From: Candidatus Margulisiibacteriota bacterium
GTDB taxonomy: Bacteria > Margulisbacteria > WOR-1 > O2-12-FULL-45-9
Length of the DNA: 29,188 nucleotides
Direction: 5' to 3'
Assembly: GCA_043816785.1 (NCBI GenBank)
Contig: JBDRHP010000102.1
Coordinates: 1 to 29,188 of the forward strand
In this document: positions 734 through 26,904 of the stretch, in pieces
Position numbering within the stretch: the first letter of the stretch is position 1
How the letters are laid out: each line of letters begins with the position of its first letter
The notes under the pieces: generated by a model
What the model was told of the DNA's origin: nothing
Seen by the model: only the letters and a program-made list of their open reading frames with translations
Database searches by the model: none
Translations under genes and position numbers: made by a program

Positions 734-771
734 GAATGGAAACATGAGACTAAACGTCTCTGTTTCCATTC
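734..771 (+). repeat. TRAAC-loop hairpin copy 1 (empty)
   Basis: GAATGGAAACA-T-GAGAC-TAAAC-GTCTC-TGTTTCCATTC. Confidence 0.9.
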
Positions 772-778
772 GACTAGA

Positions 779-860
779 TTCCAGGAAACCGCGAAGCACC
801 TCGACTTCGCTCGGTGCTGCCCTGAGCTTGCCGAAGGGTTCATTCGCAGGTTTCCTGGAA
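779..860 (-). repeat. TRAAC-loop hairpin copy 2, carrying the 42-bp insert
   Basis: Minus strand: TTCCAGGAAACC-T-GCGAA-TGAAC-[42 bp]-TTCGC-GGTTTCCTGGAA. Confidence 0.9.
796..837 (-). mobile_element. 42-bp mini-element inserted in hairpin loop (copy A)
   Basis: CCTTCGGCAAGCTCAGGGCAGCACCGAGCGAAGTCGAGGTGC, identical to 5878-5919 and 11081-11122. Mobility is inferred. Confidence 0.75.
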
Positions 861-2758: not shown

Positions 2759-2829
2759 TTTGGAAGCCTGAGACTAAACGTCTCGGCTTCCAAATTTATC
2801 AGAAAACCGCGACGTTTAGTCGCAGGTTT
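2759..2829. repeat. Inverted pair of TRAAC-loop hairpins (copies 3 and 4, both empty)
   Basis: 2759-2794 (+) TTTGGAAGCC-T-GAGAC-TAAAC-GTCTC-GGCTTCCAAA; 2804-2829 (-) AAACC-T-GCGAC-TAAAC-GTCGC-GGTTT. Confidence 0.9.
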
Positions 2830-4761: not shown

Positions 4762-5846
4762 TATTTTGTTCCTTTCCTTAAGATTGCCTGAATAAATGGG
4801 TCAATCTCTCCGTCAATCACGCTCTGAACATCTCCGACCTCAACGCCGGTGCGATGATCTTTGACCATGGTATAAGGATGAAAAACATAGGAACGGATCT
4901 GGCTGCCCCACTCGATCTTCTTTTTTTCACCCCGGATCTCTTCTATCTTATCTTTTTGCTGTGCCACCATCAATTCATACAGTTTTGCTTTTAAAATGCG
5001 CATAGCCGCATCCTTGTTGGCGTGTTGGGAACGATCGTTTTGGCTTTGGGTGACAATGCCGGTTGGAATATGGGTGATACGAACAGCAGAGCTTACTTTG
5101 TTGACATTTTGCCCGCCTGGGCCGGAAGCGCGATAGGTATCAATGCGCAGGTCATTGGGATCGATTTCAACTTTTATATCGTCGCCCGTTTCTGGAATGA
5201 CCTCAACAGCGACAAATGAGGTGTGACGTTTGCCTTCGGAAGAAAATGGGGAAATACGGACCAGGCGATGAATGCCATTTTCCTTCTTTAGATAACCGTA
5301 AGCGTAAAGACCATTGATCATTAAGGTGACACTCTTTATGCCGGCTTCTTCGCCGTAAGAAATATCAGGCATTTCCACTTTATAATCCTTACTTTCAGCC
5401 CAGCGGCTGTACATCCGGAGGAGAATTTGTGCCCAGTCTTGCGAGTCCGTGCCGCCTGCCCCGGAGTTGATCGAGAGTATAGCATTGTTTTTATCGTATT
5501 CGCCACCCAGCAGTGCGGCGATTTCCAGGCTGTCTGCATTTTTGCTCAAACGGGTAAATTCCTTTTCTAATTCAACAGTATCATTTTCTCTAGCCATTTC
5601 AATTAATGTTTGAAGGTCCTCGGTGCCATTGAGCAATTCTTCCCAGGTGCTGATCTCTTTTTCCAGGGCTTTCTTTTCTTGCAGCAATTTTTTAGCCCGC
5701 TGCTGGTTTTCCCAAAGCTTGGGATCAGCGACCTCTTGTTCGATCTCGCCCAGCTGTTGCTTCTTGGCCTGGATATTCAAGATATTTCCCATATCCTTGG
5801 CTTTGGTCTGAAGCTGCGTTAATTTTATTTTTAGCTCGTCAAGCAT
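4761..5846 (-). CDS. prfB: Peptide chain release factor 2, continuous ORF
   Basis: SPF motif (RISPF), GGQ motif, WGSQIRSYV; downstream of secA. Confidence 0.96.
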   Translation of the reverse strand: MLDELKIKLTQLQTKAKDMGNILNIQAKKQQLGEIEQEVADPKLWENQQRAKKLLQEKKALEKEISTWEELLNGTEDLQTLIEMARENDTVELEKEFTRLSKNADSLEIAALLGGEYDKNNAILSINSGAGGTDSQDWAQILLRMYSRWAESKDYKVEMPDISYGEEAGIKSVTLMINGLYAYGYLKKENGIHRLVRISPFSSEGKRHTSFVAVEVIPETGDDIKVEIDPNDLRIDTYRASGPGGQNVNKVSSAVRITHIPTGIVTQSQNDRSQHANKDAAMRILKAKLYELMVAQQKDKIEEIRGEKKKIEWGSQIRSYVFHPYTMVKDHRTGVEVGDVQSVIDGEIDPFIQAILRKGTK

Positions 5847-5858
5847 TGTGAACCTTTC

Positions 5859-5981
5859 ATGGAACCTGAGACTAAACCCTTCGGCAAGCTCAGGGCAGCA
5901 CCGAGCGAAGTCGAGGTGCGTCTCGGTTCCATAAGATTATATTTCTCAAGGAGCCGAGAAGTTCATTCTCAGGCTCCTTGA
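5859..5981. repeat. Inverted pair of TRAAC-loop hairpins (copy 5 filled, copy 6 empty)
   Basis: 5859-5932 (+) ATGGAACC-T-GAGAC-TAAAC-[42 bp]-GTCTC-GGTTCCAT; 5946-5981 (-) TCAAGGAGCC-T-GAGAA-TGAAC-TTCTC-GGCTCCTTGA. Confidence 0.9.
5878..5919 (+). mobile_element. 42-bp mini-element inserted in hairpin loop (copy B)
   Basis: Identical to copies A and C; the empty allele TGAGACTAAACGTCTC is seen at 745-760 and 2769-2784. Confidence 0.75.
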
Positions 5982-5984
5982 ATG

Positions 5985-8516
5985 TTACCCTTCCTTTGGC
6001 AAGCAGCATTTTTTATATTTCTTGCCGGAACCGCAGGGGCACGGATCATTGCGCCCGATACTGACTTTTTTCACTGCCGCTGGTTTGGCCGTTTCACGCG
6101 ACGGAGCGCCGTAGCTGACAACCCTTGGCTTGGGTCCCTCGACTCCTCCTCGACGGAGCTCGGAGTCGCTCGGGACTAGCTGAACCTTGAAGATCATGCC
6201 GATGATCTGTTCCCTGACCCCGCGCATCATTTCCTGAAACATGGTGTAGCCTTCGATCTTATATTCAACTAAGGGATCCCTGCCCCCCATCCCCCTAAGC
6301 CCTATTCCCTCCCTCAAATTATCCATATTATGCAGCTGATCGATCCAGGCGCTGTCAATGACACGCAGCATGACCAGGCGTTCGATCTCTCTCATCTGCT
6401 CAGGGCCAACTTCTGCTTCGCGATTATCATAAGCCTGCTTAAGGGTTACGATAAGAGAGTTAATAATTGGCTTTTTTTCTTTTTCAGTTTTGATCGCTTC
6501 TATGCCTGATACCGGGACGATCTCATTAACAGCGCTGATCAAGCCGTCATAATCCCATTCATCCGGGTGGGTCTTGTCAGAGAGAAAATTATTAACATTA
6601 TCATTAGCAACCTGTTCGATCATTTCCAGGGCCTTAGTTTTAAGATCTTGCCCTCCCAGGATCCGGCGGCGCAGCGCGTAAATGGTTTCTCTTTGGCGGT
6701 TCATGACATCGTCATACTCTAAAACCTGTTTGCGGATGCCAAAGTGATATTCCTCAACCTTCTTTTGCGCGCGCTCGATCATATTGCTGATCATCCGGTG
6801 TTCGATCGGAGTATCTTCTTCGATCTTAAAGCGGTCCATCATCGTCGAGATACGCTGGGAGCCGAACAAGCGCATCAGGTCATCCTCAAGCGAAACATAG
6901 AAGCGTGATGATCCGGGATCACCCTGTCGGCCGGCTCGGCCTCTGAGCTGATTATCAATGCGCCGGCTTTCGTGTCTTTCTGTGCCAATAACATGCAAAC
7001 CGCCCAGGTCAACCACGCCGTCTCCCAGAACAATATCCGTGCCGCGGCCAGCCATGTTTGTCGAGATCGTGACCATACCCTTTTGTCCGGCCTGGGAGAT
7101 GATCTCAGCCTCTCGCTCGTGCTGTTTAGCGTTCAAAACACGATGGGCAATGCCGCGCCGCTTGAGCATTTGGGCTAATAGTTCTGAGTTTTCAATGGAG
7201 ATGGTGCCAACTAAGAGCGGTCTGCCCTTTTTGTGCCAATCAGCGATCTCGTCAGCCACGGCCTTAAACTTGGCGCGTTTGTTCTTATAAATAACATCCG
7301 GCAGGTTATTCCTGACCATTGGCTTATGAGTGGGAATAACCAGGACTTCCAGCCCGTAGATCCTCCAAAATTCTCCTTCTTCAGTTTTGGCTGTACCGGT
7401 CATGCCGGCTAATTTATTGTAGAGGCGAAAATAATTTTGGAAAGTAATAGTTGCCAGGGTCTGGGCTTCGTGCCTGATCTCCACGCTTTCTTTAGCTTCG
7501 ATGGCTTGATGTAAGCCGTCAGAATAGCGGCGGCCCTGCATCAGGCGGCCGGTAAATTCATCGACAATGAGGACCTCGCCGTCTTTGATCACATAATCAA
7601 CATTTTTTTCAAAGCAATGTCTGGCGCGCAATGATTGAATGATTTGATGGGCTAAGTCCATGTGGTCAATGTCAAAAAGATAATCAATGCCCAGCAGCCT
7701 TTCTAATTTTTTAACTCCCATTTCAGACAAAACAGCGTTCTTGGTCTTTTCATCAGTAGTGAAATCACTGCTCAAGACCAATTTCTTGGCGATCTGGTCA
7801 GCTTGTTGATAGCTTTGTAGAGAGCCTTCGACCATCCCGGAAATGATCAGCGGAGTGCGGGCCTCGTCAACTAAAATACTATCGACCTCATCGACAATCG
7901 CGAAATGCAGCGGCCGCTGGACGCACTGCTCCAGGGACAGAGACATATTATCGCGCAGATGATCAAAACCAAATTCATTGTTAGTTCCGTAGGTAACATC
8001 AGCGGCATAGGCTTTTTGCCTGTCTTCCGGCTCCATCCAGTGCTGGATCACGCCAACCTCAAGACCCAGGAATTGATAGATCGGCCCCATCCATTCGCTG
8101 TCCCGTTTGGCTAGATAATCATTGACGGTAACAACGTGCGAACCTTTGCCTGCCAGGGCATTGAGGTAGATAGCTAAAGTAGCAGCCAGGGTCTTGCCTT
8201 CGCCGGTCTTCATTTCGGCGATTTTCCCCTGATGAAGAACGATCCCGCCTAAAAGCTGGACATCAAAGTGGCGCAACCCGGTGGTCCTGACTGAGGCCTC
8301 GCGTACCGCGGCAAAGGCTTCTGGCAGAATATCATCCAGGGTTTGCCCTTCGGACAGACTTTTTTTAAAGGAGGCTGTTTTGGCCCGCAGCGCTTCATCA
8401 GAAAGTTTTTTCAGTTCCGGCTCAAGACTGTTAATACGCTCGACCAGCGGAGTTAAAGCCTTAAGTTTTTTATCATCACTATCGCCTATTAAATTAAATA
8501 ACCACTTTAAGACCAT
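5985..8516 (-). CDS. secA: Preprotein translocase ATPase SecA
   Basis: [38 protein letters not shown]-terminal [18 protein letters not shown]. Start moved to ATG 8516 (MVLKWLF) because the longer ORF overlaps hpf. Confidence 0.96.
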
Positions 8517-10219: not shown

Positions 10220-10232
10220 GGTGTCGTGCCCA

Positions 10233-10289
10233 TGTCATTCCCGCGAAAGCGGGAATCTATATAGATGTCCGATCAAGTCGGGCATGACA
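10233..10289. repeat. CGTC-type/dRS3-like palindromic doublet, copy 2
   Basis: TGTCATTCCCGCGAAAGCGGGAATCTA-TA-TAGATGTCCGATCAAGTCGGGCATGACA. Confidence 0.88.
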
Positions 10290-11058: not shown

Positions 11059-11170
11059 ATTTGGAAACCCGCGAATGAACCCTTCGGCAAGCTCAGGGCA
11101 GCACCGAGCGAAGTCGAGGTGCTTCGCGGTTTCCAAATAAGGAAGCCGAGACGTTTAGTCTCAGGCTTCC
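11059..11170. repeat. Inverted pair of TRAAC-loop hairpins (copy 7 filled, copy 8 empty)
   Basis: 11059-11138 (+) ATTTGGAAACC-C-GCGAA-TGAAC-[42 bp]-TTCGC-GGTTTCCAAAT; 11141-11170 (-) GGAAGCC-T-GAGAC-TAAAC-GTCTC-GGCTTCC. Confidence 0.9.
11081..11122 (+). mobile_element. 42-bp mini-element inserted in hairpin loop (copy C)
   Basis: Identical to copies A and B. Confidence 0.75.
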
Positions 11171-15047: not shown

Positions 15048-15067
15048 CCTGCCTACCGGCAGGCGGG
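15048..15067. repeat. 20-bp imperfect palindrome adjoining the pgm SD
   Basis: CCTGCCTACCGGCAGGCGGG. Confidence 0.5.
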
Positions 15068-20938: not shown

Positions 20939-20994
20939 ATCCTCACCCCGCCCCGACTTTGTCGGGGCACCCCTCTCCACTTCGTGGAGAGGGG
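20939..20994 (+). repeat. Left composite end of the DUF559 cassette
   Basis: ATCCTCACCCC-GCCCCGACTTTGTCGGGGC-ACCCCTCTCCAC-TTC-GTGGAGAGGGG. Confidence 0.85.
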
Positions 20995-21335
20995 AAAAGA
21001 TATCTTTTGATTGTTTTCAGAACTGAATCCAGTGAGTTTAGGACTTGGTCATTTTTGAACCGTAACATCTTGATCCCCATGGATTCGATTATGTTTTGCC
21101 TTTCTAAATCATATTCTACCCTATCATTATGTATTGCGCCATCAACTTCAATACCTAGTTTGTGAGAAACGCAATAAAAATCAAGAATAAATCCTCTGAT
21201 CGGATGTTGCCTTCTAAATTTCACCCCGACCATGCCTCTATTACTTAAATATTTCCATAGTAACGATTCCGCTTCCGTCATTTCCTTCCTGAGGATTCTG
21301 GCACCTAGAAACGTTCTATATTTGTTTCTATTCAT
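20943..21335 (-). CDS. DUF559 (Vsr-like, PD-(D/E)XK) endonuclease domain protein
   Basis: AR.LRKEMTEAE..LW..L, KFRRQHPI, FILDFYC, IEVDGAIH, D.ER...IESMGIKMLRF.N. Confidence 0.88.
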   Translation of the reverse strand: MNRNKYRTFLGARILRKEMTEAESLLWKYLSNRGMVGVKFRRQHPIRGFILDFYCVSHKLGIEVDGAIHNDRVEYDLERQNIIESMGIKMLRFKNDQVLNSLDSVLKTIKRYLFPSPRSGEGCPDKVGAG

Positions 21336-21345
21336 AAAAGGATTT

Positions 21346-21413
21346 ACCCCTCTCCATCGCAGATGGAGAGGGGTGTCAATTCACGATTTATCGTGAATTG
21401 ACGGGGTGAGGAT
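21346..21413 (-). repeat. Right composite end of the DUF559 cassette
   Basis: Minus strand: ATCCTCACCCC-GTCAATTCACGATAAATCGTGAATTGAC-ACCCCTCTCCATC-TGC-GATGGAGAGGGGT. Confidence 0.85.
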
Positions 21414-22112: not shown

Positions 22113-22142
22113 GGAAACCAGCGACTAAACGTCGCGGTTTCC
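22113..22142 (+). repeat. TRAAC-loop hairpin copy 9 (solitary, empty)
   Basis: GGAAACC-A-GCGAC-TAAAC-GTCGC-GGTTTCC. Confidence 0.88.
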
Positions 22143-26819: not shown

Positions 26820-26843
26820 TATCCTCACCAGTTTGTAGGCACT

Positions 26844-26904
26844 TGTCATTCCCGCGAAAGCGGGAATCCAATACTCTGGATGCCCGATCAAGTCGGGCAT
26901 GACA
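26844..26904. repeat. CGTC-type/dRS3-like palindromic doublet, copy 3
   Basis: TGTCATTCCCGCGAAAGCGGGAATCCA-N6-TGGATGCCCGATCAAGTCGGGCATGACA. Confidence 0.88.

Follow-up and report, generated by a model that had tools for sequence, protein, structure and literature searches.

Among the systems described so far, the REP/REPIN-RAYT repeats come closest to the host hairpin studied here: in the available text of PMC3333891, PMC6006769, and bioRxiv 10.1101/2021.07.10.451892 they are, like the host, multicopy, mainly extragenic bulged hairpins, mostly arranged as inverted doublets with variable spacers, which flank a low-copy Y1 gene. The host differs in that its Y1 protein is IS200-like, with Y---Q rather than Y---NP (by the class definitions in the available part of PMC6006769), in that it has no fixed GTAG tag, and in that its loops carry foreign mini-hairpins. 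REPs are known targets of full IS elements (ISPpu9, ISPa11, and ISPsy8; available text of PMC1525189 and PMC12288879), and there, too, a mobile unit lands in the palindromic repeat of another family, as does the 42-nt insert (42-mer) that we describe; those elements, however, are full IS with their own transposase, whereas the passengers here are 16–44 nt long, gene-less, of many unrelated sequences, and placed at one bond. For non-autonomous IS200/IS605 elements, insertion 3' of a fixed tetranucleotide without duplication and in one orientation, and ends shared with a TnpA-bearing element, are expected. The 42-mer shows no duplication and a single orientation in 28 of the 28 copies listed, the 4-mer upstream of it varies, and none of the five Y1 genes of its genome has 42-mer-type ends, except for the passenger inside the host hairpin of one of them (contig C10).

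The NTS/SRM-Ssn system (PMC11893778, in the text available) resembles the insert in that a small, oriented hairpin repeat goes with a gene for what looks like a single-domain GIY-YIG protein, and the tolerance of its nuclease SsnA for loop extensions parallels the loop passengers seen here. SsnA, of another subfamily than the gene discussed below, cuts single strands upstream of its hairpin; what that text demonstrates is cleavage, not mobility or nesting. The 42-mer does not match the NTS or NTSvar motifs (compared by eye with those in the available text), its linked gene is closest to UPF0213, and the repeats stand on the 5' side of that gene only, whereas NTS doublets proper and an Ssn-like gene (contig C33) occur separately in the same genome. 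CGTC-tagged REPs and TIRYT-associated TIRs are small stem-loops with unpaired tails, often in head-to-head heterodimers, and include Y1 genes with flanking non-GTAG repeats (main text of PMC3733652); the 42-mer lacks the CGTC tag, a distinction drawn from that text. Our searches turned up no description of the 42-mer, of the host, or of passengers without genes that share one bond in a loop, and the motif strings matched none, although the figures and supplements of PMC3733652, PMC6006769, and PMC11893778 may list these repeats. For REP-type repeats and the smaller GIY-YIG-linked hairpins, the published work, in its available parts, demonstrates cleavage and strand exchange in vitro rather than a full cycle of movement. 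New here are the cognate Y1 gene of the host, an empty/filled pair at that gene, a bond used by many passengers, and evidence for hitchhiking.

Results

A 42-nt passenger in the loop of bulged host hairpins

The window, i.e., the whole 29,188-nt stretch of DNA that was analyzed, is contig C102 of the genome G000 (assembly of 1.53 Mb, 87% complete, 106 contigs). Between the stop of secA and the start of prfB it holds a filled host hairpin, ATGGAACC-T-GAGAC-TAAA[42]C-GTCTC-GGTTCCAT (5859..5932, plus strand), with the anatomy typical of the family: an outer stem, a 1-nt bulge, a 5-bp stem, and a TRAAC loop. Fold prediction keeps the host stem closed around the insert, with pair probabilities of 0.97–1.0 for 12 of its 13 stem pairs. 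The partner hairpin of this doublet is empty (GGAGCC-T-GAGAA-TGAAC; 5950..5977, minus strand); among 17 readable relatives, 16 lack any such hairpin between secA and prfB, and the remaining one, G011, has an empty doublet there. Two further hosts in the window are filled, one on the minus strand (GGAAACC-T-GCGAA-TGAA; 784..855, passenger 797–838) with an empty partner (GAGAC-TAAAC; 738..767, plus), the other between tpiA and fba (GGAAACC-C-GCGAA-TGAA; 11063..11134, plus, passenger 11080–11121), again with an empty partner (GGAAGCC-T-GAGAC-TAAAC; 11141..11170, minus). An empty/empty doublet lies at 2762..2829 (2762–2791 plus; about 2804–2829 minus) and an empty single hairpin (GCGAC-TAAAC) at 22113..22142 (plus).

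A previous, sequence-only reading of the window had reported three identical 42-mers at 5878–5919 (plus), 11081–11122 (plus), and 796–837 (minus) and empty hairpins at 746–760, 2770–2784, and 11148–11162, and upon re-reading all of these were as reported. It was also correct in describing the insert as an inverted doublet, but the boundaries had to be moved: the natural register is 5877–5918, one base to the left, and consists of CCCT-TCGGCAAGCTC-AGGG (unit 1, 5877–5895, 11 nt between the ends), a CAG spacer (5896–5898), and CACC-GAGCGAAGTCGA-GGTG (inverted unit 2, 5899–5918, 12 nt between the ends), placed on the plus strand before the last loop C (TRAA^C). This register is set by passengers that start with T elsewhere (11 of the 38 clean rows from genomes other than G000, see below) and still leave the loop C on the 3' side. 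Unit 2 alone occurs as a 20-nt insert with the same ends in G025 and G034.

A substitution search of G000 (≤10 mismatches) returned 21 copies, 20 intact and one interrupted, and most of them lie inside TRAAC hairpins: 19 are in loops of host hairpins, 2 in loops of own-family repeats. The 19 divide into 14 of allele A (GGCAAG core), to which the copy at 5877–5918 belongs, and 5 of allele B (GACTGG core). The interrupted host copy, on contig C88, is an allele A that itself holds a variant 42-mer, and this inner copy and the one at C11:45341, both variants, are the two in own-family loops. The region C11:45260–45380 is a triple nest, a 42-mer in a 24-nt module in a monomer of the same family. 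All copies share one orientation relative to the host, and a reversed-pattern control gave 0 matches across all 65 class genomes. Each of the 28 listed copies has a purine before it and the C that is the last loop base after it; the upstream 4-mer is TGAA or TAAA in the host and CAAG, CGAG, CAGG, ATAG, AGTG, or GGGG in own-family monomers, only purine^C being fixed. These data support the view of the insert as a non-autonomous, orientation-fixed mini-element at a structured loop without target duplication. None of the outcomes that the sequence-only reading had named as contradicting it was seen: 19 of the 21 copies lie in TRAAC hairpins, filled hosts cover 10 haplotypes, and the host-insert junction recurs in G004. 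MITE hallmarks were not observed, in that CCCT and GGTG, the two ends, do not pair as a terminal inverted repeat would and there is no duplication relative to the empty homolog. Viral contigs gave 0 matches to the 42-mer pattern, metagenome contigs gave 0 for the strict pattern and two near-identical loci for a relaxed one, and a GTDB-wide scan with the strict pattern gave a single match, suggesting that the exact doublet is lineage-restricted.

The host family flanks an IS200-like Y1 gene

The host census of G000 comprises 112 unique units (91 empty, 14 with allele A, 5 with allele B, and 2 with other inserts; 10 duplicates belonging to a larger repeat at contig ends were dropped), foreign mini-hairpins thus occupying 21 of 112 loops; it misses hosts broken further into the 3' arm, four of which were seen, all with CCTGCC-type inserts. 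Within 120 nt of one another lie 44 pairs, 41 of them tail-to-tail and every spacer different. None of the 44 is doubly filled, compared to 1.3 expected; this deficit is not significant and G036 has doubly filled doublets, and we rejected the notion that doublets are never doubly filled. Empty hosts are present in 44 of the 65 class genomes.

Host hairpins flank a Y1 (HUH) transposase gene on C10 and a stop-containing Y1 gene on C60. Of the homologous Y1 loci (the best 30 of 35 phylum matches), 22 have hairpins upstream, 26 have them downstream, and 20 in both places, compared to 1 of 30 in a far control. The C10 protein (164 aa) keeps HVH and Y---Q and is similar to the TnpA proteins of ISDra2 and IS608; it scores 69 bits with the IS200 model NF033573 (cutoff 55) and 48 with the RAYT model NF047646 (cutoff 80). 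On the grounds of its Y---Q and of these two scores, above the IS200 cutoff and below the RAYT one, we describe the host as REP/REPIN-like and not as a class 2 RAYT system. Three further Y1 genes of G000 (C16:17359, C49:10273, and C99:6781) each have their own unrelated flanking palindromes.

The hairpin 3' of the C10 Y1 gene is filled, which adds 14 codons in frame. In G003, the homolog (67% identical) has a hairpin of the same stem haplotype in the same place, which is empty, and G004 likewise, with one stem variant; this pairing is by position relative to the Y1 gene, since the homologs sit in different gene neighbourhoods. The comparison of C10 with G003 and G004 shows a base-exact empty/filled pair and hence that at least one pre-existing hairpin was filled in place. 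The C10 hairpin is not a master template, given that its filled haplotype is rare. The arms of host hairpins extend into site-specific complementary flanks by 2.3 bp on average (0.65 when shuffled, with a maximum of 0.97 in 2000), suggesting that one arm serves as template for the other, in which case 'compensatory' changes in the stem would be cheap. A conserved GTAG 5' of the host was not found, the 5' flanks being variable and, judged by eye, palindromic with the 3' flank.

Many unrelated passengers use the same loop bond

When host arms with an additional 12–42 bases behind TRAA were searched for, 59 rows from 18 of the 65 genomes matched the pattern. From the 45 rows outside G000, 7 were dropped (three matches due to chance or a loop variant, two broken host halves, one truncated arm, and one insert at another offset), leaving 38 rows from 14 genomes with clean small inserts of 16–44 nt, which we grouped into about nine unrelated hairpin types. 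Many of these passengers are a hairpin followed by a 4-nt tail (CAAG, CAGG, TAAA, or CGAG), which is not a duplication, as it differs from the target. The fixed loop position that had been proposed for the 42-mer stands for the 42-mer, but the bond is not special to it, many unrelated hairpins using TRAA^C. Since the host-arm pattern forces the TRAA^C offset, its rows cannot serve to measure bond specificity; CCTGCC-type inserts occur at other host offsets, about −1, +2, and +4 in an unbiased scan of G000 and +1 in G036. The host at the pheT-Y1-mutS locus is empty in G000, and in G011 a CCTGCC 20-mer occupies it at TGAA^C; on C25 of G000 a 24-nt own-family monomer occupies a host loop. Host 5' halves that end at TRAA and continue into unrelated flank were found at three loci in relatives (two in G017, one in G018) and none in G000.

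We also observed scattered CCTGCC..GGCAGG palindromes of 16–21 nt at window positions 15048–15067 and at about 30 other sites in G000, also within tRNA-like copies and other repeats; the preference for a purine pair 5' of them is weak (22 of 32 versus about 15 by chance).

The insert belongs to a module family linked to a GIY-YIG gene

Both units of the 42-mer are one module, stem-TCGRC-N-GCTC-stem, with 56 matches in G000 compared to 2 in the reversed genome. Members of the module family (stem-TCGAC-N2-5-GCTC-stem) sit between a purine and a C at the 3' edge of hairpin loops, mostly in loops of their own family. In the window, a TCGAC..GCTC monomer of this passenger-half family is nested in a longer TCGACTC..TCGCTC unit (6134..6176, plus strand) inside the secA frame, which is still open; in G006, the 3' end of secA holds a 24-nt monomer with a CAAG tail, in frame near the stop and outside any host hairpin.

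A long form of the module lies upstream of a gene on C77, one of 7 GIY-YIG matches in G000, which encodes a 98-aa PF01541 protein with its closest PDB matches in UPF0213 (1ZG2, E = 2e-12). At C77 homolog loci (the best 30 of 97 matches listed, from related genomes that are not independent), module units were found within 200 bp upstream in 17 of 30, with 0 downstream and 0 in controls. A frequent layout there is tRNA end, unit, CAAG, spacer, inverted unit, ATG, which mirrors the layout of the 42-mer itself. G036 and G011 have 31 and 12 monomers, respectively, yet no homolog of the C77 gene at E ≤ 1e-12 in their assemblies, their sole GIY-YIG matches being a tRNA-adjacent small gene and a 420-aa frame, which counts against the link.

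Although the sequence-only reading found no cognate enzyme in the window, candidate enzymes lie outside it, the C10 Y1 and the C77 GIY-YIG. Of the gene types it had named for inspection, Y1 is flanked by the host and GIY-YIG is fronted by the module, whereas the other two had neither motif in the stretches covered. DUF559 (3 genes in G000) was rejected as the cognate because the window's copy (20943–21376) has a different flanking repeat, CCCTCTCC..GGAGAGGG hairpins, with a CCCGAC..GTCGGG mini-hairpin beside the downstream one at about 20952. IS110, with a single match in G000 (C11), was rejected in that neither motif occurs in 1.6 kb covering most of the gene and its 3' flank.

Several features near GIY-YIG genes were noted in addition. 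The C77 protein is 42% identical to the C33 GIY-YIG protein, whose gene (C33:3032–3253) is flanked by NTS-type doublets, the upstream copies carrying loop inserts of their own; in the window, NTS-motif doublets lie at 869–934, 10228–10288, and 26839–26903 (the first unit matches the motif as given in the available text of PMC11893778). Small GIY-YIG genes stand between a decayed tRNA 5'-part copy loaded with palindromic inserts and an intact tRNA gene in G000 (C55:2695, C105:4393, C2:1649, and C24:5472) and also in G004, G011, G025, and G036. Just upstream of the C77 GIY-YIG gene (about 4990–5240), a tRNA-Asn-like gene is interrupted in its anticodon loop by roughly 200 nt, which we take to carry group I intron-like motifs.

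Haplotypes, alleles, and relatives

The sequence-only reading had proposed that the insert entered each host variant independently and that a tree of host stems could be used as a check. Each of the 10 pairs of host features fails the four-gamete test in the 91 empty hosts; hence no host tree exists, and differing stems are not proof of independent insertion. Filled hosts are spread over 10 haplotypes, fewer than the 13.9 expected at random (P = 0.013, i.e., more clustered), and 7 of these 10 also occur empty. The loop base is linked to the nearest stem pair in filled hosts (p = 0.02) and not in empties (p = 1), this being one of 10 pairs tested and a result that fails correction.

Alleles A and B are found in host loops in 19 of 19 copies, and other variants in own-family loops in 9 of 10 (2 in G000, 2 of 3 in G004, 4 in G025, and one metagenome pair counted once; Fisher p = 1e-6, the copies not being independent). 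The probability that none of the 19 A/B copies would lie elsewhere is P = 0.10 when the rival targets are restricted to the 14 free monomers of G000, and P = 0.0006 when the 42-mers' own cores are also counted. Occupancy is similar in both kinds of loop, 19 of 110 hosts as against 2 filled own-family loops beside 14 free. In G004, of the same family and separately assembled, the same host-insert junction recurs with one base changed; the core of this copy, GACAAG, is the family consensus and differs from allele A by 1 change and from B by 2, and its host is of a haplotype in which both alleles occur in G000. One more G004 copy, which is interrupted, likewise lies in an own-family loop. In G025, all four 42-mers are in own-family loops, beside 23 empty hosts, and no host has a 42-mer.

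Filled hosts in G000 mostly have unique flanks, unlike the clonal picture in G036. There, a CCTGCC-type passenger is associated with the GCGAG host variant (31 of 32 rows versus 2 of 30 empties; p = 5e-14), yet with both loop variants, and another passenger lies in a host loop in each of its 26 copies (26 of 26), the loop always being TAAA (16 of 30 in empties); many of these copies have shared flanks, partly in a clonal composite, and others unique flanks. These passengers indicate that filled hairpins can multiply as units and still vary. The clonal composite of G036 is about 150–170 bp long with TGAGAC..GTCTCA ends and encloses a host doublet, both loops usually with different passengers. 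Given the four-gamete shuffling, the clustered haplotypes, the confinement of alleles A and B to hosts, and the co-amplification in G036, independent insertion at each host variant is not established. Contigs from 4 sequencing runs, all short, showed no joint that skips the 42 bases among 15 listed and no listed piece that bridges a filled site, which speaks neither for nor against filled/empty polymorphism.

Discussion

On balance, we favor the view that the 42-mer, in which two units of a small hairpin module are joined as an inverted doublet without a gene, probably entered a host loop once or a few times via a single-strand step and then probably spread as a passenger of the host repeat. 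Its starting points are observations: the module family lands at purine^C at the 3' end of hairpin loops, mostly of its own family, and the host TRAA^C has the same geometry, unrelated mini-hairpins occupying that bond across the class. Entry would be by a single-strand nuclease that acts on hairpins, for which the UPF0213-like GIY-YIG, with genes fronted by module doublets, is the best candidate. With the passenger confined to the loop, the host stem remains intact, so that the Y1 system would go on copying filled hairpins to new sites; exchange among host copies would turn empties into filled ones and reshuffle the stems on either side of the insert. For G000 we infer one or few entries, perhaps shared with G004, followed by host-coupled spread through amplification and copy-to-copy exchange. 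Points that speak against this view are the range of 10 filled haplotypes with mostly unique flanks, the rarity of the filled C10 haplotype, the weaker P = 0.10 when only free monomers are rival targets, and the monomers of G036 and G011 without a C77 homolog.

A different account, which we consider rather unlikely, is that the 42-mer is a free mini-element inserted repeatedly by its own nuclease, probably a small GIY-YIG, each filled host being a separate event at purine^C. Members of the family do insert alone, as the own-family nests, the 24-nt monomer in the C25 host loop, and the G006 secA monomer illustrate; the in-place fill at C10 fits a fresh insertion equally well, and the occurrence of 7 of the 10 filled haplotypes also as empties and the like occupancy of host and own-family loops agree with it. 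Repeated insertion sits poorly, however, with alleles A and B never being outside hosts while other variants are nearly always outside, with the clustering of filled haplotypes, and with G025, where 42-mers have left all 23 hosts without one. In addition, the related SsnA cuts upstream of its hairpin, and the available text of PMC11893778 does not demonstrate joining of DNA.

It is improbable, in our estimate, that the bond is set by the host's Y1, which would nick the hairpin at TRAA^C, join foreign hairpins by HUH strand transfer, and move a passenger from loop to loop (peel and paste) with the stems of the recipients unchanged. Such a mechanism would account for both host confinement and mixed host haplotypes, and is consistent with unrelated passengers at one bond, no duplication, a single orientation, the preserved HVH and Y---Q of the C10 protein with its resemblance to ISDra2 and IS608 TnpA, the three host 5' halves ending at TRAA in G017 and G018, and the cleavage and exchange of single strands by E. 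coli TnpA-REP (available text of PMC3333891). Against it, the 42-mer uses the same geometry in own-family loops, which have no Y1 hairpin, CCTGCC-type inserts occur at other host offsets and about 30 unrelated sites, no TRAA-broken host half was found in G000, and Y1 enzymes, as far as the available text of PMC6006769 and PMC3333891 describes them, cut outside the bound hairpin. A wider proposal, speculative and unlikely though marginally less so, is that the host loop is a cargo bay: after nicking its repeat at TRAA^C, the IS200-like Y1 would ligate in short foreign hairpins that other nucleases had released, and would then carry them to further copies. If true, a REP system would be parasitised, at a single phosphodiester bond, by tiny selfish hairpins from many families, which would form a tier of hyperparasites beneath REPINs and amount to a natural tool for inserting small DNA.

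We think it very improbable that the insert is kept for an RNA function (a terminator, stability, or regulatory hairpin): filled doublets do lie between co-oriented genes (secA-prfB and tpiA-fba), but the 42-mer alone, folded as DNA, does no better than its shuffles (z = 0.34), a search of the window against Rfam gave no match, and relatives have the sites without the insert. An assembly artefact, i.e., a collapsed repeat pasted into several hairpins, is scarcely credible even for an 87%-complete assembly in 106 contigs with no listed contig piece bridging a filled site, given two alleles with private variants, the same junction in G004, nested variants, and equivalent passengers in 14 other genomes.

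The passengers serve as barcodes of how a REP family is copied, and those of G036 reveal amplification of filled hairpins as units. With an empty/filled pair that is exact to the base, one defined bond, lineage markers that are built in, and two small candidate enzymes within the same genome (164 and 98 aa), the system makes the question of how such repeats move testable with oligonucleotides and two proteins. The effect on the cell is probably near neutral; inserts are found in frame within genes, 42 nt in the C10 Y1 gene and 24 nt in the G006 secA.

Finally, we observed a collapsed multicopy element at contig ends of G000 (C8, C41, C60, C62, C87, and C88, and C42, C58, C60, C61, C79, and C85; six left and six right ends). 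Its terminal repeat GGGTGTCCAATA always follows CCCTCTCCC..GGAGGG-type hairpins, an empty host hairpin lies near both ends, and the start of its ORF is, we presume, IS1182-like.
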